A stretch of 16,371 nucleotides of DNA from a virus. The translations under genes and the position numbers were made by a program. Shown piece after piece: positions 2,142 to 12,640 of this stretch. How positions within the stretch are numbered: the stretch's first letter is position 1; every line of letters begins with the position of its first letter. Below the pieces are notes generated by a model. It ran no database searches. It was not told where the DNA came from and worked only from the letters and a program-made list of their open reading frames with translations. The stretch lies in UHGV virus genome UHGV-0104965; one strand, given 5' to 3'.

Positions 2142-3194
2142 TTATTCCCCTGCCAGCTGCCTTACCTCACTTACCGTCTGGTTGAAACGTTCCTCTTCCA
2201 GTTCTACGCCGATAGCCTGGCGGCCCAGTTCAATGGCTGCTTTAACAGTTGATCCCGAGCCCATAAAGAAATCAGCTACCACATCGCCGGGCCTGCTGCT
2301 GGCGTTGATGATTTGCCGCAACATATCAGCGGGCTTTTCGCACGGGTGTTTGCCTGGATAGAACTGGACTGGTTTATGGGTCCATACGTCCGTATATGGC
2401 ACGGCAGCTGTCACAGAGAAATGCCGCCGAAGTGATTTGTACTCTTCGAGCAGCTCTGAATATTTGCGATTCAACGAATGCCACAGAGCCACCAGCTGGT
2501 GGTGTGGTGTTGCCAGTTCGCCGTTCTGGTGCTTTTCGATGGCTACCTGCGTGAAAAGGGACTGAAGTTTCCGGTAGTCTGATTCATTCGGTAATTGCCA
2601 CTGGCTACCGCTGAACCAGTGAGACACCATGTTCTTCTTTCCAGTCGCATCGGCTATTTGTTTTGAGGATATGCCAAGCGCTTCACGTGCATCCCGGAAA
2701 TAAGATATTAGGGGAGTCATTACATGCTGCTTCAGCTCGCTTCCCTTCTCAGCGTACCCGTCGCTCTTTGGTTTATACGGCCCCTGGTAATGCTCAGCGA
2801 ACAGGATGCGTTCTGTTGCAGGGAAGTAAGAGCGCAGGCTCTCTTTATTACAGCCATTCCAGCGGCCCGACGGTTTAGCCCAGATGATGTGGTTCAGGAT
2901 GTTGAACCGCTCACGCATCATGATCTCAATGTCTGCCGCCAGGCGGTGACCGGAGAAAAGATAAAGACTGCCAGCAGGTTTAAGCACTCGCCAGAATTGT
3001 GCGAGGCACATATCAAGCCAGCGAAGATAATCCTCATCCCCTTTCCATTGATTGTCCCAGCCGTTGGGTTTCACTTTGAAGTACGGCGGATCCGTAACAA
3101 TAAGGTCAATGGTGTTATCTGGGAGGGTTGCGAGGTATAGCAGGCAGTCAGCGTTGACAAGCTCAACACTGTTTATATTTACAGTATTTTTCAT
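2142..3194 (-). CDS. DNA methyltransferase, beta-class (N6-adenine or N4-cytosine), orphan phage enzyme
   Basis: Motif IV TDPPY near the N-terminus and SAM-binding motif I FFMGSGST near the C-terminus (beta-class order: IV then I). 350 aa, no adjacent restriction endonuclease gene. Confidence 0.9.
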   Translation of the reverse strand: MKNTVNINSVELVNADCLLYLATLPDNTIDLIVTDPPYFKVKPNGWDNQWKGDEDYLRWLDMCLAQFWRVLKPAGSLYLFSGHRLAADIEIMMRERFNILNHIIWAKPSGRWNGCNKESLRSYFPATERILFAEHYQGPYKPKSDGYAEKGSELKQHVMTPLISYFRDAREALGISSKQIADATGKKNMVSHWFSGSQWQLPNESDYRKLQSLFTQVAIEKHQNGELATPHHQLVALWHSLNRKYSELLEEYKSLRRHFSVTAAVPYTDVWTHKPVQFYPGKHPCEKPADMLRQIINASSRPGDVVADFFMGSGSTVKAAIELGRQAIGVELEEERFNQTVSEVRQLAGE

Positions 3195-3392
3195 AGATCC
3201 GTAAGCGTAACTCTGATAGGCTCACTATGCTTTTGCGCTAAAGCAGTGGGCCTTGGTTAGCTTGTGACCTGAAAGCATGAGCTGATGGCTGGCCGGGTGC
3301 TACAACACCCTCCAGCCGCCCATTTCTCAAGCGAAAATGCCTCCAGATAGGAGGAGCGTAGATTAGATAACTGGCTTTAATTTTCTGTCGAC

Positions 3393-3425
3393 GAAAAAAA
3401 ACCCGCTATTAAGCGGGTTTTTTCC
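3393..3425. terminator. Strong bidirectional rho-independent terminator ending the AT-rich moron
   Basis: ACCCGCU(3401-3407)-auua-AGCGGGU(3412-3418), 7-bp stem, flanked by an A8 run upstream and T-run downstream; directly follows the stop of the 53-aa CDS on the minus strand. Confidence 0.75.
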
Positions 3426-3445
3426 TATTTTTTAAGCGGCAAGAT

Positions 3446-3607
3446 TCATGCGGCTTCTCTAACACGACGGCGACCTTGACGCTCTTGAGAAGGTGCCTGT
3501 GCATTCTCTTCAAGAGCTGGACCAACCTTCATAAGAAAGTCCAGAGCTTCGCCAGCTTTTCTGTAAGTTTGGATAGTATCAAACAAGCGTTCTTTTTTCA
3601 TTTCCAT
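3446..3607 (-). CDS. Small hypothetical protein (53 aa), unlisted in the ORF track
   Basis: Hand translation: MEMKKERLFDTIQTYRKAGEALDFLMKVGPALEENAQAPSQERQGRRRVREAA. ATG at 3607 preceded by GAGGTG SD; stop TGA at 3446-3448 followed by the strong terminator. Basic C-terminal tail. Function unknown. Confidence 0.55.
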   Translation of the reverse strand: MEMKKERLFDTIQTYRKAGEALDFLMKVGPALEENAQAPSQERQGRRRVREAA

Positions 3608-3855
3608 ACATCACCTCTTCGGAAGCATTGTTCCAGAGTGAACATGCATTTCGTGTAACAACATGCGTGCTGAAGTTCACATGTTCATGTTACTACTACA
3701 TGCAAGAAGCATCTCGATACTTGAGCCACTCATTGCCATAGCTTTGAGCGATTGACATAGATGGTAGCTGCCATCTAGTTCTTCGGTATCTAGTGCTTAA
3801 ACTTGAGTACACTATAACACAATTACAATGTACCCGCTAACTTATGGGATGATGA

Positions 3856-4401
3856 TTAAGCATCTCTTTCAGCCATGTATCTCATCAGCCTATCAAGACT
3901 ACAAGTCATAACATAAGAGCAACTATCTGACATTTCAAACCCAAAGGTCCGATAGTAATCAATCTTTTCTTCCACTGGTTCAATGATACGAACCTCAGTA
4001 CCATCAACTTGCTTCATGAAGATAACGGCGGCGTATAATGTATACAAAATCATCTTACGACGCAATGGATGATCTTCACTATCCTTCACGAAGTTCTCAA
4101 CTGCATGTATATCAAACCTACTGCTACCGTGATGGTAGGTGCACAATGCCACACCCGCTGGGTAATCATCAACAAGTTTATGCTCTTTAGAAGTTATTAG
4201 TTTAATACATAAACTGAAACAATCCGGGTCATTACCTACTGAGGTTACATAGTATTCCCAGTTAAGTTCACCATAAGCTCTTATGAGGGAACTAGTATCA
4301 TTAAAAGAAAGCGGACCGACTGCTAGATCTATCTCACGATGATCCATGTATGCCTGGAGGGTGTTATAGGTTTGTTGAGCTACTTCTTCCAGAGAAAGCA
4401 T
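3856..4401 (-). CDS. Hypothetical protein in AT-rich moron (about 181 aa), possible GNAT-like fold
   Basis: ORF 3856..4413 uses a TTG; first ATG is at 4401 (MLSLEEV...). No clear SD. Low GC versus flanks. C-terminal segment ...RRKMILYTLYAAVIFMKQVDGTEVRIIEP...IDYYRTFGFE loosely resembles the acetyltransferase core and Y-x-x-x-G-F motif; weak, eye-only. Confidence 0.7.
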   Translation of the reverse strand: MLSLEEVAQQTYNTLQAYMDHREIDLAVGPLSFNDTSSLIRAYGELNWEYYVTSVGNDPDCFSLCIKLITSKEHKLVDDYPAGVALCTYHHGSSRFDIHAVENFVKDSEDHPLRRKMILYTLYAAVIFMKQVDGTEVRIIEPVEEKIDYYRTFGFEMSDSCSYVMTCSLDRLMRYMAERDA

Positions 4402-4500
4402 AATGTAGGCCAAAACAGGAGTTTAAGGGTTGAAAAAGAATACCATTAACAAATGTTAAAAACACTGAAGGATGGGATGTTTTTTCAGATTACTCCCAAG

Positions 4501-4522
4501 AAAAAACCCGCTCACTGGCGGG
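4501..4522 (-). terminator. Intrinsic terminator immediately downstream of the Q-like gene (tR'-like)
   Basis: On minus strand CCCGC-cagtga-GCGGG followed by UUUUUU (complement of 4501-4506). About 50 nt downstream of the candidate late promoter. Confidence 0.7.
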
Positions 4523-4558
4523 CTGATATACTTTTAGCAACATATCAAATTAGCTTCA

Positions 4559-4587
4559 AATATCGCTTATTTTGTTGCATTTTGCAA
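4559..4587 (-). promoter_or_regulatory. Candidate late promoter pR' (sigma70-like)
   Basis: On minus strand TTGCAA (-35; plus 4582-4587), 17-bp spacer, GATATT (-10; plus 4559-4564), placed between the Q-like gene stop and the tR'-like terminator. Hexamers are imperfect; positional argument is the main support. Confidence 0.3.
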
Positions 4588-4617
4588 GCTTAATTGAGGG
4601 AGTTAGTGAAAGTTACA

Positions 4618-5331
4618 TCACATTTCCGCCACTTTCAGTTCTTGGTACTCTTCGTACCGTGACAAAATTTCGCTTAGTGCCTGGCTGTCCATCTCAGTAA
4701 ACGACGCTTTGAAAGCCGCCCAGTGGCATGAATACACTCTGAGCCAGGTGGAACGCTCAACGCTGACCATGCGCGCCAGCGCTGCACCAGCATACTCCTG
4801 ATAGGTATCGTTATTACGCGAGGCAGCAACTTCTTGCGCCGCCAGCCAGACAAGCCCTATCAGTTTTTTAGTGACACGGTCCTGGATTTTTTTGCCGCTA
4901 TGCTGACGCTGAAACTCTTCCCATACGAACTGGCACATTAACCTCTGGTACCGGAAAGCAAGGTCATGCCCATAGCAGTACCGCACCCATGCCTGCAAAT
5001 GCTCCCCAAGACCATTGACCGAACGACGCCATGCTGAACAAGCGAACTCCGCATCCTTAATAGGCGGTAAAGGTCTGCGACGGCTCCTTGTCTCAAGAAC
5101 ATAAAGTGGAGTGGCCATCGTTTTTACAACCTTGGATCCACAACCTTCCCCACCCTCCATGACGATTTCAGGATGGTGCCGGGGGTATTTGTTCTTATCT
5201 GCTGGTGGATGCTCACTGAACGCCTGCAGCTGTCCTTTTGTCGATCCTGATAAATCCGCCAGCGCGCGGCGCAGTTCAATCCGCGTATATTCCAGTTCTT
5301 GTAAATTCATTATGCTCAGCGCTCCATACAA
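4618..5331 (-). CDS. Putative late-gene antitermination protein Q (QuuQ/YdfT-like)
   Basis: 237-aa ORF directly downstream of the YdfU-like gene and upstream of a promoter-plus-terminator pair and the lysis cassette, the canonical Q position; this gene order and size match my recollection of ydfU-quuQ in E. coli Qin. No Cys4 zinc finger seen, so not lambda-Q type. Start may be the internal ATG at 5310 (MNLQELEY). Confidence 0.6.
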   Translation of the reverse strand: MYGALSIMNLQELEYTRIELRRALADLSGSTKGQLQAFSEHPPADKNKYPRHHPEIVMEGGEGCGSKVVKTMATPLYVLETRSRRRPLPPIKDAEFACSAWRRSVNGLGEHLQAWVRYCYGHDLAFRYQRLMCQFVWEEFQRQHSGKKIQDRVTKKLIGLVWLAAQEVAASRNNDTYQEYAGAALARMVSVERSTWLRVYSCHWAAFKASFTEMDSQALSEILSRYEEYQELKVAEM

Positions 5332-6393
5332 TTACGCTTTTGTTATTACGCCGATCGCCAGCGCTCGATTCATAAACCGGAATAGCAGCTCCAGCTGGGT
5401 ACCGTGCTTTTTCTCGAACGCTGCAACATCAGCATGTAAATTGTCGTGACACTCTCTGCACAGAGGGATCACAAACAAATCGTGGGCTTTAGTGGCGGTA
5501 CCGCCCATGCCGTGACCAATGACATGGTGTGGATCATCCGCTGGCCGCCGGCAAGCTTCACAGGGCTGGGTTTTAACCCACCGGGTATAGTCCTCATTCA
5601 CCCACCTGCGGTGTTTTGGGCGCAACATGAATGATTCAGGGGATTCAGGATCCGCATGCAGAGCCAGAACCTTTGGCAGTTCATAGGCTACTTCCTGATT
5701 TGCTCCATGCTTTAATTTCGCAGCCGTGACCGCAGGGGTGACCTTCTTCTGCAAAATGCTTTTTGCCGGGGGCATCGGCACAATGTCACTTTCTCGATAT
5801 ACGGATAAAAACGGCTCATCCGGTAATCGAAGCGCAAGCTGGGCCATCCTTTCCGTGATTGCATCAGCAATGCCTGAATAAACAGCCCACCAGCACAATT
5901 CACCGAGGGATAATTCACGCTCGTTGTTATACCCAAGCGATGACAGGATGGAACTGATCAGCCAGTTAATGAGATTACGCCGGGCCAATTCTGCCAGCGC
6001 CGCGGTGGTTTGATCGCGCAGCTGGTTATCGCAATGCCAACAGAGCAACATTGATCCAGGGGGATGTCGCATCGTTACCAGCTCATGATGGTGATAATCA
6101 GTGTGCGGGTACTGGCATTCCTTCACGTTACGCTCTAACCAGGATTCCAACGCGGTCAAACCGCCTGCTGCACGGATAACTCTCTCGTCGGTGAAGAATT
6201 CCTCGAGCGACTTATCTTCTGCCAGCGGCTGCCTGGCATCAGGGACGAGCCCCGACGGAAGCCCAGCCATACTTTTCGGCTGAGGCTCCACCAGCACACG
6301 CCCCTGTTGAAACAAAGACATCAGTTCGCTACCTGGCTTTAACAGCACAAGCCCAAGGCGCGGAACAGTCTCGGCTGTAAACAGTCCTCTCAC
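5332..6393 (-). CDS. YdfU-like phage protein (DUF968-type with C-terminal HNH/zinc-binding Cys-His cluster)
   Basis: 353 aa; Cys/His clusters CQYPHTDYHHHE...CWHCD and C-terminal PCEACRRP...HHVIGHGMGGTATKAHDLFVIPLCRECHDNLH (YbcO/DUF1364-like pattern). Start ATG overlaps the antirepressor stop (ATGA at 6390-6393). Confidence 0.8.
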   Translation of the reverse strand: MRGLFTAETVPRLGLVLLKPGSELMSLFQQGRVLVEPQPKSMAGLPSGLVPDARQPLAEDKSLEEFFTDERVIRAAGGLTALESWLERNVKECQYPHTDYHHHELVTMRHPPGSMLLCWHCDNQLRDQTTAALAELARRNLINWLISSILSSLGYNNERELSLGELCWWAVYSGIADAITERMAQLALRLPDEPFLSVYRESDIVPMPPAKSILQKKVTPAVTAAKLKHGANQEVAYELPKVLALHADPESPESFMLRPKHRRWVNEDYTRWVKTQPCEACRRPADDPHHVIGHGMGGTATKAHDLFVIPLCRECHDNLHADVAAFEKKHGTQLELLFRFMNRALAIGVITKA

Positions 6394-7082
6394 GCGGCAT
6401 GCCCCTTAGCGATGTGTGCCGTCCACAGGCCGCCGATCCACTCGATGCCTTTGGGTGTAAAACGTGCCTGGCTAAAGGCGTAGTTTGTTTCGCTCGAAGT
6501 GCCAGTTTTCACTTCAAACCGCCCGGCAGCAATGTGCTGGTGCCGCGGTGTCAGCACTCCGCCGAGCCGGTATAAAATGCCGCTCTCAATGAGGAACAAG
6601 CGGAAATCTGTCTCTTTGGCCTGCAACAGCTTTGCCACCTGGCGGAAAGACATTGAGCCTTTGGCAGTACAATACCGATCGACAAACTCAATTTTCGGCG
6701 CGGCAGCGGCTAACTGCTGGCTGAGTTGTTCTTTCTGCTCGGCCAGATCCGCGGCGAGACGTAATGCCTCCGGCAATGTTTGGGGGACACTTACGGCCTG
6801 GCTGTTCTCCAGCTCTTGCCAGCGATCGACAACAGCGGCGGTAAATTCTGGCGACAGCCTGGCGACGATCACCAGAGAATCACGTTTGTTGAACCAATAC
6901 TCCTCGTAGGTTTGCCCGTTTTGCGGGTGTGTGTAGGGGGTGTGCGCCAACGGCGCGGTTAAAATACCAGCAGATGCAAGGCGCTCAGCTGAGCGCTTCA
7001 CATCACCATGTTTGCTCTGTACCAGCCTGGCAATTTCACGGCTGGACATTGTCACAACACCCTTTGCGGTTAACTGATTCAT
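6390..7082 (-). CDS. Phage antirepressor, Rha/AntA-like N-terminal domain plus KilAC C-terminal domain
   Basis: ORF 6390..7130 trimmed to Met17 (MNQLTAKGV...), which has a GGAGA SD 7 nt upstream. N-terminus TMSSREIARLVQSKHGDVKRSAERL matches the Rha/Ant pattern; C-terminus ...FRQVAKLL...LYR...P.Q.I..GRFEVK... matches the KilAC pattern. Confidence 0.85.
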   Translation of the reverse strand: MNQLTAKGVVTMSSREIARLVQSKHGDVKRSAERLASAGILTAPLAHTPYTHPQNGQTYEEYWFNKRDSLVIVARLSPEFTAAVVDRWQELENSQAVSVPQTLPEALRLAADLAEQKEQLSQQLAAAAPKIEFVDRYCTAKGSMSFRQVAKLLQAKETDFRLFLIESGILYRLGGVLTPRHQHIAAGRFEVKTGTSSETNYAFSQARFTPKGIEWIGGLWTAHIAKGHAA

Positions 7083-7096
7083 GCTATTTCTCCATA

Positions 7097-9034
7097 TCAG
7101 GCGGCTGCACCCGCCTTTTGATTTGCACATAATTCAGGAAGATTTGCTTCTACCAGCGCACGAGCGAACGGCGGCGGTACTGCGTTACCGCAGCGCGCTA
7201 CCTGCTTGTCTTTGGCGTAACGATTGCCGCGATAGTCCTGATCGATAACGTAGCCGTCAGGGAAGCCCTGCGCCTTATAAAGCTCATGCGGTTGCAGCAT
7301 GCGCATTCCGATATCGACGATCTGGTACTTAACCCCCTCGATCGTCACCAGCCATTCATCCTCGCTATCACCGCAGTAGGTTTCGAGGAATGTCCGGACC
7401 TCGCCAACGTGCTGGCCACCAGCGGTAATCGTCGGCATAGGTGTATCCATGGTCTGACCGTCGCGGCAGGTTCCGCGCAGCTTCACCAAGTGCGACGCAA
7501 CTACCGCGTGATGATCAACAGTAGTGACAGAGTGGGCAGGCTCATCCATACCAACACCCGGCCCCGTGTAATTCCCACCATAGTGCTTTGCCAGGAACGC
7601 GCTCACCGTTGCAAACTTATTACCACCAGCAGTGACCGTGCCGAGCGGGTTATTCAGTTGAAGAACACGCGGTTCTTGCCCTAGGCGTTCGCCGTACCCC
7701 ATCTGGATCAGTGTTGGAGTTACCAGCTGCGACTTACCGCCACCACCTGCAGTAATCGTCGCGCTCGGTTCGTCAGCCCTGTGCCCAACACTAGCGCCAA
7801 ACTGGCGGGCGATGACCGGCGCAACCACGCACGCGCGGGACTGCCTGAGGATTGTATGAGCGGGTTTATCCAGCGGGCGCGGCTTTGCCTGGTACTCACT
7901 GCCGCCATTGCCAGCCAGGAACGGTGTCAGGGCGGCCTCAACTACGCCAAGCGCATGCCCATTCCCGCCCGGACGCGCCGACGTACCAGCGGTGACAGTT
8001 GGTACCGGCTCGGTCACTGGCTGCCCGGTGGCCCCGGTGCGGAATTTAGTAAGATGCGGTACCGCCAGCGCGTAGCCATGCTTTTTAGTGATGGTCTGCA
8101 ATGGCTCTAACAACGATTGCCCGCGGAAACAGTCATAACCTCCTTTCGTCGTGGTGTGGTTACACTTCACGATGAAAGGTGATGCGCTTTCGATAACAAA
8201 GCGCTGGATGCCGCGCGCGATACGTTTGAGCGTATTTTCCGCCAGCGGCTTTTTGCGGTCGAAGATGGAACGGGCCGGAATGTTCCAGTCAATGCACTCC
8301 GCCGCGGTACGCCATGGCGCCAGCTTGCCGCTTTGTACTTCCAGTGATTTTGGATCCCCATGAGTCGCTTCAGGCCAATGAATCTTGCGGCCGTCACAGC
8401 GCATGACCATGAAGAAACGCCTTCTGATCGTCGGCGCGCCGTAGTCACAAGCGCGCAGCTCACGATAATCGACCTCATAACCAAGCCCGGCGATCAGCTG
8501 TTGAGCCTGCTGGCCGTGCGGCTCAATGGCAAGAAATTCACAAACCTCAGCCAGTGCTGGGTGATTCGCCGCGATCCCCGTCGACAGCATGCCGACAAAT
8601 GCCTCGAATGTTTCACCAGCACGCTCAGGATCCGGGCGTAATTCTTCATCCAGCAGCGGGCCCCATGTCTTAAATTCTTCGACGTTCTCCAGCATCATGA
8701 CTCGGGGACGTACTGCCAGCGCCCAGCGCAGAACAATCCACGCCAGCCCGCGAATCTCTTTCTTAACTGGCTTAGCGCCCTTCGCTTTGGAAAAGTGGCG
8801 GCAGTCAGGGCTAAACCAGGCCAAGCCGACAGGTTTACCGCTGGTGGCTGCGCTTGGGTCAACGTCAAACACCGACTCGCAATAATGCAGCGTGTCAGGG
8901 TGATTCGTCTTATGCATCGCAATAGCGTTTTCGTCGTGGTTGATAGCGATATCCACGCTACGCCCGATCGCCACTTCAATGCCGGTACTCGCGCCGCCGC
9001 CACCAGCAAAGTTATCAACGATAATTTCACGCAT
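7097..9034 (-). CDS. DNA (cytosine-5)-methyltransferase with enlarged, four-module target-recognition region
   Basis: ORF 7097..9088 (GTG) trimmed to ATG at 9034 (MREIIVDNFAGGGGASTG, motif I). Motif IV region SPDCRHFS, motif VI ENV, motif VIII RRR, C-terminal motifs IX (QGFPDGY) and X (CGNAVPPP). Between VIII and IX are four degenerate repeats of P-x-x-T-[VI]-T-A-G-G ... [FT]-L. Confidence 0.9.
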   Translation of the reverse strand: MREIIVDNFAGGGGASTGIEVAIGRSVDIAINHDENAIAMHKTNHPDTLHYCESVFDVDPSAATSGKPVGLAWFSPDCRHFSKAKGAKPVKKEIRGLAWIVLRWALAVRPRVMMLENVEEFKTWGPLLDEELRPDPERAGETFEAFVGMLSTGIAANHPALAEVCEFLAIEPHGQQAQQLIAGLGYEVDYRELRACDYGAPTIRRRFFMVMRCDGRKIHWPEATHGDPKSLEVQSGKLAPWRTAAECIDWNIPARSIFDRKKPLAENTLKRIARGIQRFVIESASPFIVKCNHTTTKGGYDCFRGQSLLEPLQTITKKHGYALAVPHLTKFRTGATGQPVTEPVPTVTAGTSARPGGNGHALGVVEAALTPFLAGNGGSEYQAKPRPLDKPAHTILRQSRACVVAPVIARQFGASVGHRADEPSATITAGGGGKSQLVTPTLIQMGYGERLGQEPRVLQLNNPLGTVTAGGNKFATVSAFLAKHYGGNYTGPGVGMDEPAHSVTTVDHHAVVASHLVKLRGTCRDGQTMDTPMPTITAGGQHVGEVRTFLETYCGDSEDEWLVTIEGVKYQIVDIGMRMLQPHELYKAQGFPDGYVIDQDYRGNRYAKDKQVARCGNAVPPPFARALVEANLPELCANQKAGAAA

Positions 9035-9926
9035 TGACGGCCCCCTGCATGCTGTTGAAGAGACCACCAGCGGTCGTGATAATTTCACTCATCGGCATAC
9101 GTTCGAGCCACAGCTGGTTGATATTGGCTTTCAGCTTGTTCTGCTGTGAAACAGGTAGAGCGTCAGCCCCTTCAATCTGGTTAAACACCAGGCCAACCTC
9201 AAGAGGCCAGATGCGCGACTCTGCATCAGGCGTTGCAATGGGAGCAGGCATTACATTTTCCGGCACCGACGGAAGGGCCAATTTTGCCGCGGCGAATTGA
9301 GCCAATGACAATGCGGCACGCCCTTTTTCTTCCAGTTCGGTGCGATTGATATAGCTGAATCTTTCACCACGCCAGGTTTTGTCAAAGACAGCGATTGCCC
9401 CGGCAAAAAATGCGCTGGTGGGTTGCTGCTTCTCGTCAGCGGGAACAAACCAAACAGGAAGATCGAACCCAATACGACCACGAATAAACATGATGTGATC
9501 GGCATCCTCCGGCCACCATGTTTCACTTGTGGCTGACTTCACGAGGTATATGTAACGACCACCTTGATCACGCATCGCCATTGTGTGATTCATGATGTGG
9601 GTCATGCCAGTGATGGCCTGCTTTTCATGGTACTGAGAACGGCTATATGGCGGATTTGCAAACGCGGCGCCACCGAGTTCTGCCAGACGCTCTGACCAGT
9701 CCTGCGTCAGCGCGTTATCTTCGGCGGTATACCATGCAGGGCATTTAGCATTGCTATCGTCTGCAAACAGATCCAGAACCATCGGCCCAAATATCGAATT
9801 GATGCCCCAAAACAACAAATCCGGAGTGCGCCACTGATCGCCAACCTCTTTCAATTCATGCGCTGGCTTTGAGCGCAGTTCAGCCAGCGCGCGGCAATAT
9901 TTGTTATCAGCATTCATGCTCATCAT
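9027..9926 (-). CDS. Phage DNA N6-adenine methyltransferase (phage Dam family) with about 100-aa C-terminal extension
   Basis: WRTPDLLFWGINSIFGPMVLDLFADDSNAKC...AFANPPYS: the W-x-T-P ... D-x-x-A ... NPPY pattern of the phage Dam family. ATG overlaps stop of the O-like gene (ATGA at 9923-9926). Confidence 0.9.
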   Translation of the reverse strand: MMSMNADNKYCRALAELRSKPAHELKEVGDQWRTPDLLFWGINSIFGPMVLDLFADDSNAKCPAWYTAEDNALTQDWSERLAELGGAAFANPPYSRSQYHEKQAITGMTHIMNHTMAMRDQGGRYIYLVKSATSETWWPEDADHIMFIRGRIGFDLPVWFVPADEKQQPTSAFFAGAIAVFDKTWRGERFSYINRTELEEKGRAALSLAQFAAAKLALPSVPENVMPAPIATPDAESRIWPLEVGLVFNQIEGADALPVSQQNKLKANINQLWLERMPMSEIITTAGGLFNSMQGAVNA

Positions 9927-10786
9927 TTCGCTCCCCTGAAGCCAGCTGGAATGGCTTTATCTGGTCCACCAAATTTCATCGGATCATGCTTACGGATTGA
10001 GCCCCAATACTGTCGTTCTGGACGTCCTGCTGCGTTCCACTTATTTGCGGATTGCAGGTAGCCTGGGAATTTTGTTGGCAGAAACAGCGTTGTTGGGCGC
10101 AGATATTCGGCCATTTTCAGATCCTCGCCCCACTTCTCGACGCTGTAATCCACCACCAACAGCAGCTCATCGGGCGTAAACCCGTCAGCCAAGCGAGCCC
10201 GGATGTTTTCCAAGGATGATTTGCAGACCTGATACCGTGATCCGGTGGTCTTGTTCAGATGTGATAAAACCTGCTTCGCCTGATCGGTGATAACCACCAC
10301 AGGGTCGGGTTGCGCAGCAACCGGACAAGAATGTTTTTTATCTGATGGATCAGTAGTTGTATTTACTGACGGATCCCCCCCAGATTCTGACTGGTGAAAA
10401 CCGCCTTTTTCATCGTTTTTTGATGCCTCAGATTTTGACGCGTCGGTTTTTGAGGCATCAGATTTTGATGCGTCAGAATCTGACAGGTGAGAAAAGGCAG
10501 CAGCCTGTAATTTCGCAACATTGAGCTGGTAAACGTTCGATGCATTGCGGTTGCCTTTACGGCGCTGCTGGCGGGTTAACCACCCGTCTTTTTCCAGTTG
10601 AGATATGGCTGTGCGAACCGTGCTCTCACCGGCACCAATCTGGCGCGCGATGGTAGCGATGGAAGGCCAGCTAACCCCTTCATCACTGCTGAAGTCTGCC
10701 AGACGCGCCATGATGGCAACGCTGGACAGCTTCATGCCAGAAGCGGCACAAGCGTCCCAAACGTAACCCGTTAATTTAGTGCTCAT
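9923..10786 (-). CDS. Replication initiator (lambda O-like function): N-terminal winged-HTH, repetitive linker, conserved phage C-terminal domain
   Basis: N-terminal HTH ...WPSIATIARQIGAGESTVRTAISQLEKDGWL; central low-complexity repeats SDSDASKSDASKTDASKSEASKND encoded by iteron-like DNA repeats; C-terminal domain ...VLSHLNKTTGSRYQ...ENIRARLADGFTPDELLLVVDYSVEKW typical of phage replication proteins. ATG at 10786. Confidence 0.85.
   Translation of the reverse strand: MSTKLTGYVWDACAASGMKLSSVAIMARLADFSSDEGVSWPSIATIARQIGAGESTVRTAISQLEKDGWLTRQQRRKGNRNASNVYQLNVAKLQAAAFSHLSDSDASKSDASKTDASKSEASKNDEKGGFHQSESGGDPSVNTTTDPSDKKHSCPVAAQPDPVVVITDQAKQVLSHLNKTTGSRYQVCKSSLENIRARLADGFTPDELLLVVDYSVEKWGEDLKMAEYLRPTTLFLPTKFPGYLQSANKWNAAGRPERQYWGSIRKHDPMKFGGPDKAIPAGFRGAK
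10325..10484. repeat. Candidate origin of replication: four iteron-like repeats plus adjacent AT-rich tract inside the initiator gene
   Basis: CAGATTCTGAC (10381), CAGATTTTGAC (10429), CAGATTTTGAT (10459), CAGAATCTGAC (10474); 23-bp direct repeats GATGCCTCAGATTTTGACGCGTC / GAGGCATCAGATTTTGATGCGTC 30 bp apart; AT-rich segment 10325-10375. Same layout as lambda ori within gene O. Confidence 0.55.
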
Positions 10787-11127: not shown

Positions 11128-11733
11128 TTACTTCTCCATACAAGATTTGTCTGCCACGACGCCCGGAGCTGCACACTCGCGGGCGTCACTCTTTTCCGGC
11201 GCACAAAACACACGGAAAAGCAGCGTCAAATGTTCCTGCCACTTAGCCATCACCTGATAGCTGTTCTCTTCGATCTGGGTGCGTTCCTGAGCATCAATAA
11301 CGCCGTCAGCGGTAGCTTTACGAACGTATTGTGAATGCCTGCCGATCCACTCAACTGACTCCATGAGACGCTGGTTGATATCGCCGTTCTCAATCTCTTC
11401 AACATCAGCCAATGGCACAAAAACACCGTTCGAGTGACGTGCAATAGCGTTCGCTATGTGGTTTGAACCACCAGCACGTTGAAGCACCATCGCCCAACCG
11501 AGCGGGAAGATCTGATCGCCATCGGTACGCAGCCGGTTAAACAGCGCGTTCTCGGTCACACCCAACCACTCAGCAGCTTCTGAATATCCGCCAGGCAGCT
11601 CGGTGATCGTTTTTTTGATTGCGGCCACCAGCCAGGCTGGCTGCTTATCTACTTTCCATTCAGGTTCTATACCCACGGCTAGGTCCTCCCTTCTGTGGTT
11701 ATTTCTGATCGTTAGGCGATGTATTCTTGCCAT
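11128..11733 (-). CDS. CII-like lysogeny-establishment regulator (phage 186 CII / YdaT-like family)
   Basis: Position immediately downstream of cro-like gene; HTH-like segment YSEAAEWLGVTENALFNRLRTDGDQIFPLGWAMVL resembles the phage 186 CII pattern. ORF 11128..11760 begins with GTG; first ATG at 11733. Start uncertain (no clear SD); overlaps cro-like gene end. Confidence 0.6.
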   Translation of the reverse strand: MARIHRLTIRNNHRREDLAVGIEPEWKVDKQPAWLVAAIKKTITELPGGYSEAAEWLGVTENALFNRLRTDGDQIFPLGWAMVLQRAGGSNHIANAIARHSNGVFVPLADVEEIENGDINQRLMESVEWIGRHSQYVRKATADGVIDAQERTQIEENSYQVMAKWQEHLTLLFRVFCAPEKSDARECAAPGVVADKSCMEK

Positions 11734-11914
11734 AACGTTCTGGGTTGAATTCCAGTTCACCAGCAGTTCGATACGCAGCTTCAGCAGCTCGTCCTTTAGG
11801 GATTAAGCGTCCGGGGCGATTACGCCACTGGTAAACGGCCTCACTGGTGATGCCAAAAAATTCGGCAACTTTCTCAGTGCTGCCGAAATGTTGTTCAATC
11901 TCGTCGGTTGTCAT
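11699..11914 (-). CDS. Cro-like repressor (YdaS/Cro-type HTH)
   Basis: 71 aa with HTH STEKVAEFFGITSEAVYQWRNRPGRLIP; strong AGGAGG SD (11919-11924) before ATG at 11914; divergent from the CI-type repressor across an operator-rich region. Confidence 0.8.
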   Translation of the reverse strand: MTTDEIEQHFGSTEKVAEFFGITSEAVYQWRNRPGRLIPKGRAAEAAYRTAGELEFNPERYGKNTSPNDQK

Positions 11915-12013: not shown

Positions 12014-12640
12014 ATGGAAACGGTTGGTCAGCGCATTAAAGCCCTACGCAGGGTTACAAAAACCTCTCAAAAAGAACTGGGTAAGTTCTGCGGGGTTAGT
12101 GACGTAGCGGTGGGTTATTGGGAAAAGGATGTGAATATCCCTAACGGAGAATCGCTGGTTAAGCTGGCTAAATTCTTCAATACATCAATAAATTACATTC
12201 TTTACGGCACTGAATTTGAAGGTACCCTCATAACTAAAATGAGGCGTGTGCCCGTGATTTCCTGGGTTCAAGCTGGGCAGTTTACGGAATGTAAGGCCGC
12301 TGATTTATTCAGTGATGTTGATAAATGGGTTGAAACATCACTACGCATTGGGGATAGCTCGTTCGCTTTAGAGGTCAAAGGGGATTCAATGACCAATCCA
12401 AATGGCCTCCCAACAATCCCTGAAGGGGCAACCGTTATTGTTGATCCAGATGCCGAACCCCTTCATGGCAAGATTGTTGTTGCGCGTATTGATGGCACTA
12501 ACGAAGCGACTGTTAAAAAACTGGTCATTGATGGCCCACAAAAATTTTTAGTCCCACTAAATCCTCGCTACCCCAACCTCCCGATCAATGGTAACTGCCT
12601 CATTATTGGCGTAGTTAAAGGCGTTCAGTACGAACTCTAA
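12014..12640 (+). CDS. CI-type prophage repressor (N-terminal XRE HTH, C-terminal S24 LexA-like peptidase)
   Basis: HTH QKELGKFCGVSDVAVGYWEKDVNIPNGESLVKLAKFF; C-terminal autocleavage domain with Ser in GDSM and Lys in VKKLV; divergent from cro-like gene. Confidence 0.95.
   Translation: METVGQRIKALRRVTKTSQKELGKFCGVSDVAVGYWEKDVNIPNGESLVKLAKFFNTSINYILYGTEFEGTLITKMRRVPVISWVQAGQFTECKAADLFSDVDKWVETSLRIGDSSFALEVKGDSMTNPNGLPTIPEGATVIVDPDAEPLHGKIVVARIDGTNEATVKKLVIDGPQKFLVPLNPRYPNLPINGNCLIIGVVKGVQYEL

Follow-up and report, generated by a model that had tools for sequence, protein, structure and literature searches.

A phage-borne C5-cytosine DNA methyltransferase with seven tandem recognition-like units and a candidate multispecific design

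Results

The methyltransferase gene and its surroundings

The DNA analyzed here (the window) is a stretch of 16,371 nucleotides from the virus genome UHGV-0104965. On its minus strand, positions 7097 to 9034 (stop codon included) encode a phage-borne C5-cytosine DNA methyltransferase of 645 aa, as identified from the list of open reading frames and a match to PF00145. The open reading frame is intact and starts with an ATG (MREIIVDNF); the same start methionine is used by homologs, and a protein identical in sequence exists in public collections. The gene is situated between a phage Dam gene and an antirepressor gene (Ant) in the early-right operon of a lambdoid prophage. The upstream Dam-type N6-adenine methyltransferase gene (9027 to 9926, minus strand; PF05869, E=3.6e-45; TIGR01712, 209 bits vs. 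a cutoff of 97) belongs to the same operon, its stop overlapping the start of the C5 gene by 8 nt. A third methyltransferase of the N6_N4_Mtase type (PF01555, E=7.6e-44) is encoded downstream of Q at 2142 to 3194, also on the minus strand, so that the prophage carries three methyltransferases. Other genes close by encode a replication protein, DUF968, CI, a CII-like protein, Q and lysozyme. No restriction gene is adjacent to the C5 gene, whose neighbors are Dam, the replication protein, Ant and DUF968, and no partner genes for further base modification were found near it.

The first-pass annotation of this DNA had placed the enzyme in an enterobacterial lambdoid prophage. The early-right operon with CI, CII-like protein, Q and lysozyme agrees with this, but the setting is not exclusive, as tblastn found homologs in 122 phage records, including phages of Pseudomonas, Vibrio, Aeromonas, Burkholderia and Rhizobium. 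Within E. coli the gene is rare (12/5426 complete genomes). Family members of 900-1113 aa were considered as Dam-C5 fusions resembling P1 Dmt; this was rejected, as these members contain inteins. P1 was absent from the 60 records that tblastn listed out of these 122.

A conserved C5 catalytic core

The identity of the enzyme, proposed earlier from the sequence, was confirmed both by PF00145, which matched in three stretches (73.1 bits vs. a cutoff of 22, E=3.5e-20), and by structure comparison. The score against TIGR00675 (dcm) stayed below the cutoff (53.4 vs. 100.65 bits) because a long repeat array, described below, breaks the alignment. The motifs follow the order I, IV, VI, VIII, variable region, IX and X, and all are encoded on the minus strand. 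Motif I, the SAM-binding loop (DNFAGGGG, residues 7-14, 8993 to 9016), aligns to 'dlfsgvgg' in the prophage CP-933R methyltransferase (PDB 3g7u) and is >90% conserved in the family. Motif IV (FSPDCRHFS, residues 74-82, 8789 to 8815) is treated separately below. In motif VI (LENVEEF, residues 115-121, 8672 to 8692) E116, N117 and V118 are >90% conserved. Motif VIII (DYGAPTIRRRFF, residues 197-208, with APTIRRRFF at 200-208; 8411 to 8446) corresponds to 'dygaptirtryf' in 3g7u, motif IX (RMLQPHELYKAQGFPDGY, residues 578-595, 7250 to 7303) was aligned to DNMT1/MET1 and 3g7u, and motif X (CGNAVPPP, residues 615-622, 7169 to 7192) matches 'iGNAVPPP' in DNMT1, with N617 invariant in the family alignment. 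The catalytic residues C78, E116, R204/R206 and N617 are thus all found in the protein.

In the AF2 model the catalytic domain, motif VI included, was predicted at pLDDT >90. Foldseek matched the predicted structure to 3g7u, DNMT1, M.HhaI and M.HaeIII (E 1e-11 to 1e-8, probability 1.00), and a class I SAM-methyltransferase fold was recovered for the catalytic domain, while the part comprising the small domain and the array lacked a confident model. The closest solved structure is 3g7u (sequence E=6e-7, fold E=1.6e-11), which like our enzyme is encoded in an E. coli prophage, but is only 376 aa long, has a GGPPCQ motif and lacks a module array.

SPDC is the hallmark of a large clade

In classical C5 methyltransferases, the proline of the motif IV Pro-Cys dipeptide is considered invariant. 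Here the Pro-Cys dipeptide is absent from motif IV; SPDC starts at residue 75, so that the proline comes one residue earlier and Asp stands in its canonical place before the predicted catalytic Cys78. In the alignment to 3g7u ('fspdcrhfs' vs. 'ggppcqgfs') D77 pairs with the proline of Pro-Cys and R79 with the glutamine of PCQ. This had been noted before as an atypical catalytic motif. It is instead the hallmark of a clade: of 150 cluster representatives, 139 carry PDC, and P76, D77 and C78 are invariant across 144 aligned family members. We refer to this previously unnamed group as the SPDC clade, defined here by motif IV S-P-D-C-[KTR]-H-[FH]-S together with an array of [DE]-x-P-x-x-T-x-T hairpin units. 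At 50% identity it comprises 8585 clusters, most of them of enzymes from phages or prophages, and our 645-aa protein, with FSPDCRHFS and seven units, fits the definition. Judging from these alignments, we treat Asp-Cys as a clade-specific variant within the C5 methyltransferase superfamily and see in it no ground for exclusion.

Seven units between motifs VIII and IX

The region between motifs VIII and IX, as placed by alignments to 3g7u and DNMT1, contains seven tandem units of 32-48 aa. All seven have a common core, [D/E]-x-P-x-x-T-[IV]-T, after which come a loop, a strand of hydrophobic residues and a tail rich in Gly. The protein has seven matches to P-x-x-[TS]-[IV]-[TIL], all of them between residues 311 and 537, and the units start at about residues 306, 338, 386, 418, 458, 494 and 527. 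When each unit was compared with an HMM of the other six (leave-one-out), it scored 6.3-18.5 bits, a value reached by 0-1 of 2000 shuffled sequences.

Tandem modules resembling target-recognition domains (TRDs) in this position had been proposed in the first-pass annotation, and the alignments confirm both the modules and their placement; all eight repeat strings quoted there are present (residues 341, 368, 421, 437, 461, 476, 529 and 546). The number is however seven and not four as then counted. Four units have a Gly-rich loop (T-I/V-T-A-G-G), and the three without it (TITKKHGY, TILRQSRA and VTTVDHHA) had been overlooked. HMM search and modelling of the modules had been suggested at the same time; the HMM comparison supports all seven units, and AF2 modelled the array at pLDDT 31-69 only.

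All units are encoded on the minus strand. Unit 1 (residues 306-337, QSLLEPLQTITKKHGYALAVPHLTKFRTGATG; 8024 to 8119), without a Gly-rich loop and among those overlooked, was placed by unit alignment and scored 13.3 bits in the leave-one-out test (0/2000 shuffles). Unit 2 (residues 338-385, containing TEPVPTVTAGTSARPGGNGHALGVVEAALTPFLAGNGG; 7880 to 8023; 9.9 bits, 1/2000 shuffles) has a long Gly-rich loop. Unit 3 (residues 386-417, RPLDKPAHTILRQSRACVVAPVIARQFGASVG; 7784 to 7879; 6.3 bits, 0/2000 shuffles) is another of the overlooked units. Unit 4 (residues 418-457, containing DEPSATITAGGGGKSQLVTPTLIQMGYGERLGQEPRV; 7664 to 7783), delimited by unit alignment, leave-one-out and typing, is of unit type 'F', and unit 5 (residues 458-493, containing NNPLGTVTAGGNKFATVSAFLAKHYGG; 7556 to 7663; 18.5 bits) was typed as 'C'. 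Unit 6 (residues 494-526, VGMDEPAHSVTTVDHHAVVASHLVKLRGTCRDG; 7457 to 7555; 16.8 bits) is the third overlooked unit. Unit 7 (residues 527-559, QTMDTPMPTITAGGQHVGEVRTFLETYCGDSED; 7358 to 7456; 15.8 bits) is of type 'B' by typing and family consensus, and after it the terminal 'A' unit that is usual in the family is reduced to its second strand, LVTIEGVKYQIVDIGMRML.

At the DNA level, Tandem Repeats Finder detected no tandem repeat, and BLASTP of the array against itself gave no self-hits, the repeat being detectable by profile methods only. Recurring DNA is limited to 18-19 nt encoding P-T-I-T-A-G-G, which is found in unit 7 (7416-7434), unit 5 (7623-7641), unit 4 (7743-7761) and unit 2 (7985-8002). 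With no tandem DNA repeat and only this short core in common, the duplication is therefore ancient. Over 101 diverse units the P and T of P-x-x-T-[IV]-T are >90% conserved, and the linkers between units are G/P/Q/S-rich and variable in length. AF2 prediction with 12 close homologs as input gave a mean pLDDT of 29.6; an input of 144 diverse sequences yielded a good model of the core, and residues 295-560 reached the 31-69 given above. The units may be arranged like beads on a string, form an open solenoid or make up one domain.

Natural alleles gain, lose and exchange single units

Alleles that are 77-99% identical have lengths of 605, 609, 626, 644, 659, 680 and 690-695 aa. Single units have been lost or gained in register, and the junctions fall where the second strand starts; clean gain, loss or swap of single units was likewise seen among near-identical enterobacterial alleles. 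The 609-aa alleles (P0025) lack a 31-aa stretch that begins in the tail of unit 2 and reaches to the second strand of unit 3, the first strand and loop of unit 5 are missing in alleles of 605, 626 and 629 aa, and P0085 has the length of our protein with one unit lost and another gained. P0017 is 97-100% identical to our protein over residues 1-417, but in units 5 and 7 the identity falls to 75% and 66%, respectively. These natural alleles with lost, gained or swapped units stay intact and conserved, and among 120 close homologs the conservation of the array matches that of the core (entropy 0.31 vs. 0.22-0.44).

Throughout the SPDC clade the number of units per protein ranges from 1 to 12. The units of one protein are all different while the same unit types reappear in distant relatives: the closest unit within the same protein has a median identity of 0.42 and the closest in another protein 0.69, and only 1.3% of the units have a sibling at >=60% identity in the same protein. 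Recurrent unit types are defined by their loop sequences, whose conservation within a type is strong even between distant relatives; types were obtained by average linkage, since single-linkage clustering chained the units into one cluster. The repertoire of variable units and the identity of the core do not correlate (Spearman 0.02, 4523 pairs), and cassette shuffling is therefore indicated. The units largely keep their order, and just two type pairs occur both ways round; F-C units travel as a fixed pair, and almost every member has a constant B-A pair at its end, in which 'B' is the near-constant penultimate unit. 'A' is the most conserved unit of the family, yet it is truncated in the clade of our protein with the open reading frame kept, and no single unit would therefore seem indispensable. 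Taken together, the modularity, exchange and purifying selection seen in these sequence comparisons favour independent modules.

Similarity to multispecific enzymes of Bacillus phages

Of the Bacillus phage enzymes, SPR methylates GGCC, CCGG and CCWGG, H2 has three targets, and rho11s has two targets and additional 'pseudo-domains'. In solved enzymes a Thr-[Leu/Ile/Val] element sits beside the flipped cytosine; in M.HhaI, Thr250 is located at the catalytic cleft. The parallel to the Bacillus phage enzymes drawn in the first-pass annotation proved closer than anticipated. SPR contains three analogous '..PT[LI]T[TS]..G.G..' units and rho11s and H2 four, with a spacing of 30-47 aa. Like M.SPRI, M.phi3TI, M.rho11sI and M.H2I, our enzyme is a phage-borne orphan with a conserved C5 core and with short tandem modules from motif VIII to motif IX. 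In every module a Thr-[Leu/Ile/Val] element precedes a loop that contains Gly and a strand of hydrophobic residues; in both groups the module number varies among close relatives. The last Bacillus unit is collinear with the terminal 'A' unit of the SPDC clade through motifs IX and X, although the profile similarity is weak (9-12 bits), and has EPAFTV in common with residues 233-238 of M.HaeIII (checked in PDB 1dct). Our unit most similar to it is unit 6, which BLASTP aligned to 'DEPAFTVNTIDRHGVAIGEYPKYR' of H2/rho11s with 46% identity (E=0.006, from a 3-sequence database). The unit HMM finds the Bacillus and M.HaeIII sites at 2-8 bits, a score reached by 0-3 of 300 shuffles.

The two groups nevertheless belong to different lineages. 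Significant full-length similarity to the SPR-family core is absent, the BLASTP core matches being short with E>=1, and the cores are about 28-30% identical over short stretches. Motif IV reads S-P-C-Q in the Bacillus enzymes and S-P-D-C-R in ours, modules number 3-4 there, 7 in our enzyme and as many as 12 in the SPDC clade, and the hosts are Firmicute and Proteobacterial, respectively. Multispecificity has been demonstrated experimentally for the Bacillus enzymes and is in our enzyme predicted from sequence. Bacillus phage enzymes array TRDs in tandem for several targets (PMC12707154, PMC8936443), and in a review from 2025 the temperate phages of Bacillus are the only ones credited with such arrays (PMC12707154). 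M.BceSV from a B. cereus prophage and M.BssHII/M.phiBssHII are reported to be prophage C5 enzymes with more than one specificity (PMC3592412, PMC6765204); these are Firmicute enzymes and were compared with ours by description only.

M.HaeIII (PDB 1dct, 3ubt) and M.HhaI have the same fold as our enzyme but are monospecific, with solved DNA complexes; their targets are GGCC and GCGC, respectively. Residues 232-249 of M.HaeIII (NEPAFTVQASGRQCQLHP) display the E-P-x-x-T-V and hydrophobic-strand pattern of the repeat unit, but each of these enzymes has one clear such element, as compared to seven here, and a canonical P-C-Q motif IV. HMMER alignments of the B-A-IX-X profile and of the SPR C-terminus to the PDB enzymes begin only at motif IX; the unit profile gave no match in PDB, and neither did a 30-aa SPR unit. 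A phage Dcm that triggers retron Ec86 was also considered and rejected, this being a 237-aa enzyme of T1-like phages with an unrelated architecture. A CmoX-type carboxymethyltransferase was set aside as only the generic fold is common (sequence E=0.11).

Discussion

In our enzyme seven different hairpin modules occupy the place normally held by a single target-recognition domain. The first strand of each module runs into T-[IV]-T; a loop specific to the unit type, a second, hydrophobic strand and a flexible tail rich in G, P and Q come after it. Every module has a Thr-[Leu/Ile/Val] element of its own, and our results suggest a model in which the modules work as alternative, exchangeable recognition units. 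One polypeptide could in this way methylate several unrelated short sequences, with probably about one specificity per module. The orphan enzyme, presumably active, would be transcribed with the early-right (replication/nin) operon and hence be made during lytic growth. Together with the Dam-type and N6/N4 methyltransferases it might leave the progeny phage DNA pre-protected from many host restriction systems. Multispecificity through exchangeable modules, as in M.SPRI, M.rho11sI and M.H2I, is plausible because of the modular unit variation and the Bacillus phage parallel, and by this analogy we give it an even chance. More tentatively, and with somewhat less confidence than an even chance would express, each hairpin of 32-48 aa may be an autonomous, portable sequence reader, which would make the enzyme up to heptaspecific and the clade a combinatorial library of >150 unit types, shuffled independently of the core, with which Proteobacterial phages would track the restriction repertoires of their hosts.

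A different explanation is that the seven hairpins stack into one open-ended beta structure that reads a single site, possibly long or degenerate, with unit number tuning the specificity. Large variable regions do occur in monospecific C5 methyltransferases, and open-solenoid repeat proteins likewise tolerate changes in unit number. The mostly conserved unit order, the fixed F-C pair and the constant B-A end also fit such a structured composite domain and speak against our main reading, as does the weak similarity of the units to characterised TRDs (the 2-8 bits above); in addition, two units are kept even in minimal family members. A single composite fold is nonetheless difficult to reconcile with unit numbers from 1 to 12 that change by single units between 90%-identical alleles, with a repertoire decoupled from core phylogeny, and with flexible-looking linkers rich in G/P/Q/S and variable in length. 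AF2 found no cooperative fold, the most conserved unit seems dispensable in the clade of our protein, and P-x-x-T-[IV]-T recurs in every unit although solved enzymes need it once per catalytic event. We therefore regard a monospecific enzyme as rather unlikely, if still a serious alternative.

Two further explanations concern what the enzyme does rather than how the array is built. It might methylate cytosine with relaxed specificity or almost none, as a C5 equivalent of M.EcoGII; the array would then provide a generic DNA-gripping or processivity platform, and very short contexts would be methylated. Prophage orphans of little or no specificity exist (M.EcoGII, PMC5778455; the Hia5 family, PMC3299994), and these resemble our enzyme in function as orphan prophage methylases giving broad protection from restriction, although they are of the unrelated adenine-N6 class and achieve breadth by lacking specificity and not via a module array. 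Orphan modifiers of mobile elements often act on highly degenerate sites (PMC12707154), and three methylases together suggest a 'methylate everything' strategy. However, the type-specific conserved loops are a signature of specific readout and not of generic binding, the units within a protein are systematically non-redundant, and dense m5C would probably be highly toxic as well as a strong McrBC target, which makes this explanation improbable. Even less probable is that the protein is no conventional methylase at all, being catalytically dead through the Pro-to-Asp change or transferring another group (e.g. carboxymethyl, as in CmoX), with the array in another role such as protein binding. 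The replacement of an otherwise invariant proline and the low TIGR00675 score (53 vs. 100.65) point in this direction, and a natural C5-carboxymethyltransferase of the same fold (PDB 8yf3) is among the fold matches (PMC12783734). On the other hand P-D-C is invariant in thousands of intact clade members, as are ENV, R-x-R and GN(A/S)V, arguing for a conserved active chemistry; the similarity to CmoX is negligible at the sequence level, and the gene neighborhood is devoid of partners for further modification.

Multi-target cytosine methylases with tandem recognition modules have been known for >30 years, essentially from a few Bacillus phages. The SPDC clade, which is found in phages of Enterobacteriaceae, Pseudomonas, Vibrio, Burkholderia and Rhizobium, among others, follows the same design principle at greater scale: a protein may have as many as 12 modules, and natural cassette exchange is clear. 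If each unit is an autonomous reader, the clade would be a much larger and more plastic counterpart of the Bacillus phage enzymes. Literature searches (REBASE being outside their scope) found no publication on the SPDC clade or the SPDC motif, in agreement with the earlier remark that such an enzyme was not recognised as described. Members are annotated merely as 'DNA cytosine methyltransferase', and the family may have gone unnoticed because m5C is poorly detected by PacBio. Should the modules be independent readers, one gene would let Gram-negative temperate phages evade many C5-dependent restriction systems. The family would also link modules of about 40 aa directly to DNA motifs and provide parts for engineering methyltransferase specificity, a toolkit for programmable m5C writers. 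The natural alleles that differ by one unit make this hypothesis directly testable.

Two further points speak against our main reading: in some hosts a phage carrying m5C would be open to attack by McrBC, McrA and Mrr, and the gene is rare in E. coli, as noted above.

The C5 methyltransferase and its catalytic core

The C5 methyltransferase gene is an intact ORF on the minus strand, at the coordinates that the first-pass annotation had given (7097-9034), and its product is 645 aa long when read from the ATG (N-terminus MREIIVDNFAGGGG); a GTG 18 codons upstream serves as start in none of the homologues compared. Alignment to solved enzymes located motif I (DNFAGGGG, residues 7-14), motif IV (FSPDCRHFS, 74-82), motif VI (ENV, 116-118), motif VIII (APTIRRRFF, 200-208), motif IX (RMLQPHELYKAQGFPDGY, 578-595) and motif X (GNAVPPP, 616-622), and the full set of catalytic residues is present (Cys78, Glu116, Arg204/Arg206 and Asn617). 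The protein scored 73 bits against Pfam PF00145 (cutoff 22) and under the cutoff of NCBIfam TIGR00675, because the array of repeated units, lying in the ~370 residues that separate motifs VIII and IX, breaks up the alignment. An AF2 model built with 144 diverse relatives reached pLDDT >90 at residues 1-290 and 560-640 and only 31-69 in the array, and Foldseek against the PDB matched 3g7u (the prophage CP-933R methylase), DNMT1/MET1, M.HhaI and M.HaeIII with E-values of 1e-11 to 1e-8. Taken together, the PF00145 score, the six canonical motifs and the Foldseek matches agree with the earlier assignment, and we take the protein to be a C5-cytosine methyltransferase, probably an active one. Among close homologues the most variable part is residues 126-185 (window 8480-8659, entropy 0.76), between motifs VI and VIII, where the homologues P0061, P0055 and P0010 carry an additional 21-24 aa independent of the variation in the array.

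The SPDC form of motif IV, found at residue 75, had been regarded as atypical, and this does not hold. An exhaustive HMMER search over 1.84 billion cluster representatives returned 8585 clusters at E ≤1e-3 and 2578 at ≤1e-30 (lengths 403-1113 aa), and P-D-C within S-P-D-C-[KTR]-H-[FH]-S is a hallmark of the clade, being present in 139 of the best 150 representatives; the remaining 11 include N-terminally truncated proteins and proteins with an intein exactly at the Cys. P76, D77 and C78 are invariant in the alignment of 144 sequences. Classical motif IV has Pro where SPDC has Asp, and the invariance of P-D-C indicates that this Asp is a conserved replacement, presumably tolerated by catalysis. 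In five relatives outside the window (P0132, P0188, P0218, P0201 and P0223, 900-1113 aa) a Hint/LAGLIDADG element interrupts the catalytic Cys as S-P-D|C and the C5 domain picks up again at the position of residue 77 in our protein; this is an active-site intein in a phage methyltransferase family.

Seven related units between motifs VIII and IX

A scan of the whole protein for P-x-x-[TS]-[IV]-[TIL] gave seven matches, all of them between motifs VIII and IX. The seven segments, starting near residues 306, 338, 386, 418, 458, 494 and 527, align as one repeat, in which an acidic residue, Pro and T-[IV]-T are followed by a 3-12 residue loop, then by a hydrophobic strand and a tail rich in Gly. 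Each unit, compared with an HMM of the other six, outscored no fewer than 1999 of its 2000 shuffled versions. The pattern scan, the unit alignment and the leave-one-out HMM thus confirm tandem modules at this place, and all eight strings quoted for them were found (residues 341-555). The number was too low, as four modules had been counted, namely those with a T-A-G-G loop, and three units (TITKKHGY, TILRQSRA and VTTVDHHA) had been overlooked. No tandem DNA repeat was found in the array-coding DNA, where the sole recurring piece is ~19 nt coding for PT[IV]TAGG, and the duplication is therefore old.

Average-linkage typing of units across the family gave ~167 types, with the loop as the defining feature. 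The number of units per protein ranges from 1 to 12 and is mostly 6-8. Most members close with a constant B-A pair preceded by a variable set, in which an F-C pair is common ahead of B-A; the minimal members (472-525 aa) are essentially B plus A. Type B has the consensus PxxTxTAGxHxAEVRAFLxKYYG and type A, which adjoins motif IX, EPLHTxTTKDRFGLVTVxGxxYxIVDIGMRML. Our protein has the order [rare][rare][rare]-F-C-[G/K-like]-B, with F-C as units 4-5, and from its type A unit both the first strand and the loop have been lost. Units within one protein are dissimilar (median best sibling identity 0.42, reaching 0.6 or more in only 1.3% of units); across proteins, best matches have a median identity of 0.69.

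Natural alleles and cassette exchange

Homologues 77-99% identical to our protein fall into length classes of 605, 609, 626, 644, 659, 680 and 690-695 aa, and their alignment showed that the main differences are clean indels of ~31-39 aa inside the array. Unit 3 is missing in the 609-aa allele, the deletion of 31 aa, seen in P0025, beginning in the tail of unit 2 and ending at the second strand of unit 3. In P0035, P0061 and P0055 the deletion takes out the unit 4 tail and, from unit 5, the first strand and the loop; it is the unit 5 loop that the 605/626-aa alleles are without. Conversely, P0002, P0009, P0017 and P0042 have one additional unit following unit 6; in the 680-aa allele the additional unit is SEPLQTLTTKADSAMVT. 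P0085 equals our protein in length, having lost one unit and gained another, and P0017 is 97-100% identical up to residue 417, with 75% identity in unit 5, 66% in unit 7 and 52 residues inserted. Because the indel junctions coincide with the beginning of the second strand, the hairpins stay in register.

Mean column entropy in 120 close homologues was 0.31 for the array, as compared to 0.22-0.44 for the catalytic core, and the array loops are almost invariant, a pattern which indicates that the array is under purifying selection and conserved like the core. Sharing of variable unit types did not correlate with core identity (Spearman 0.02, p=0.17, 4523 pairs), which indicates that the units move as cassettes.

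Relation to the Bacillus phage enzymes and possible function

The multispecific methyltransferases of the Bacillus phages SPR, rho11s and H2 have 3, 4 and 4 comparable units in their variable regions, spaced by 30-47 aa, of the form '..G[LI][SA][PT]T[LI]T[TS]..G.G..[IV].V', and the proposed likeness to these enzymes is thereby upheld at the level of the unit. Unit 6 of our protein (DEPAHSVTTVDHHAVVASHLVKLR) is 46% identical to the last Bacillus unit (DEPAFTVNTIDRHGVAIGEYPKYR; E=0.006 in a small database of SPR, rho11s and H2), and a profile of B-A plus motifs IX and X from the clade aligned collinearly, if weakly (9-12 bits), with that unit and on through the two motifs. The EPAFTV of the last Bacillus unit recurs at residues 233-238 of M.HaeIII (PDB 1dct), and the unit HMM marks such sites in M.HaeIII, SPR, rho11s and H2 at a level matched by 0-3 of 300 shuffles. 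All four enzymes methylate GGCC, and the T-L element has a conserved Thr, Thr250 in M.HhaI, which is positioned at the catalytic cleft. SPR and H2 each have three targets, while rho11s has two plus inactive 'pseudo-domains'; set against the unit counts, this makes the number of T-[LIV] units approximately an upper bound on the number of specificities. Canonical monospecific C5 enzymes have one clear T-[LIV] unit, whereas our protein has seven and its clade up to 12, also exceeding the 3-4 of the Bacillus enzymes. The matches of its core to the SPR lineage are non-significant, so by sequence the clade is not a member of that lineage.

We put at about an even chance that the seven exchangeable modules would alternate as recognition units at one shared catalytic core, such that one enzyme methylates several target sequences and, deployed by the phage together with two adenine methylases, pre-protects progeny DNA. 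Independence of the modules is argued by the single-unit indels and swaps in conserved alleles, by the non-redundancy of sibling units, by the type-specific and conserved loops, by the decoupling of unit repertoire from core phylogeny, by the P-x-x-T-x-T element that each unit keeps, by the dispensability of the most conserved unit in the clade of our protein and by the flexible, G/P/Q-rich linkers. Against multispecificity we counted the weak similarity of the units to characterised target-recognition domains (TRDs) and the largely conserved unit order, with F-C and B-A as fixed pairs. Possibly, the array is instead a single composite TRD of a monospecific enzyme, which we find rather unlikely. 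That the enzyme is relaxed or non-specific, with the array as a DNA grip, seems improbable to us, and that it is inactive or of different chemistry, very improbable. Unit counts of 1-12 and alleles differing by one unit make a propeller or another closed fold unlikely. Multispecificity is unusually easy to test here, because single-unit deletion, insertion and swap variants exist naturally.

The arrayed-TRD principle is already known, as Bacillus phage enzymes gain several targets via TRDs in tandem (PMC12707154; PMC8936443), and M.BceSV of B. cereus is a further Firmicute example. Our literature search, with REBASE outside its scope, turned up no paper dealing with this clade, with motif IV of the SPDC type or, beyond Firmicute phages, with C5 enzymes that have their TRDs in an array, in agreement with the first-pass annotation, which had not recognised such an enzyme as described. 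The lineage, the scale (7 modules, in the clade up to 12), the cassette exchange and the breadth among Proteobacterial phages appear to be undescribed.

Prophage context and distribution

The gene content of the window is that of a lambdoid immunity-replication-nin-Q-lysis segment, in line with the prophage setting suggested earlier. It encodes a CI-type repressor (12014-12640, plus strand) and, all on the minus strand, a CII-like regulator (11128-11760), a replication protein (9923-10786), a phage Dam (PF05869, 9027-9926) whose stop overlaps the C5 start by 8 nt, an Ant/KilAC antirepressor (6390-7130), a DUF968 protein (5332-6393), the Q antiterminator (4618-5331), an N6_N4 methyltransferase downstream of Q (PF01555, 2142-3194) and a lysozyme (1320-1859). 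From its position the C5 gene would be expressed from the early-right promoter in lytic growth. No endonuclease gene was found among its neighbours in the window, which makes the C5 enzyme an orphan. Near-identical genes are present in the phages Flotzy, Eeyore and Phi06_2987 and in many Enterobacter, Salmonella, Citrobacter, Klebsiella and Kluyvera genomes; of 5426 complete E. coli genomes, only 12 have one. Relatives detected by tblastn came from 122 phage records, including Pseudomonas (32), Vibrio (20), Aeromonas, Burkholderia, Rhizobium and Pectobacterium ZF40; the source names are generic throughout.

The Dam, C5 and N6_N4 enzymes together make three DNA methyltransferases in one prophage, each of a different class. 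The DUF968 protein, encoded two genes downstream of the C5 gene, has a weak C-terminal HNHc_6 match under threshold (E=8e-4) and is probably the usual nin-region gene of lambdoid phages and not a restriction partner. Window 3195-4617, which separates Q from the N6_N4 methylase, has a GC content of 0.39-0.40 (flanks ~0.52-0.56) and contains no tRNA genes; its ORF 3856-4413 (185 aa, TTG start) has no Pfam match, and perhaps the stretch represents a moron or an accessory gene. The Dam-type protein is 299 aa long here and 444 aa in E. coli CX21 and phage Flotzy, where it carries the label 'PAPS reductase'; both forms have the Dam domain at the N-terminus and differ by a variable C-terminal extension of ~145 aa with no Pfam match. 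The 90%-identity cluster of the 645-aa C5 enzyme also includes 'phage N-6-adenine-methyltransferase' proteins of 444-448 aa, and this mixture resembles an artefact of clustering, or bridging by read-through or fused calls over the 8-nt overlap.
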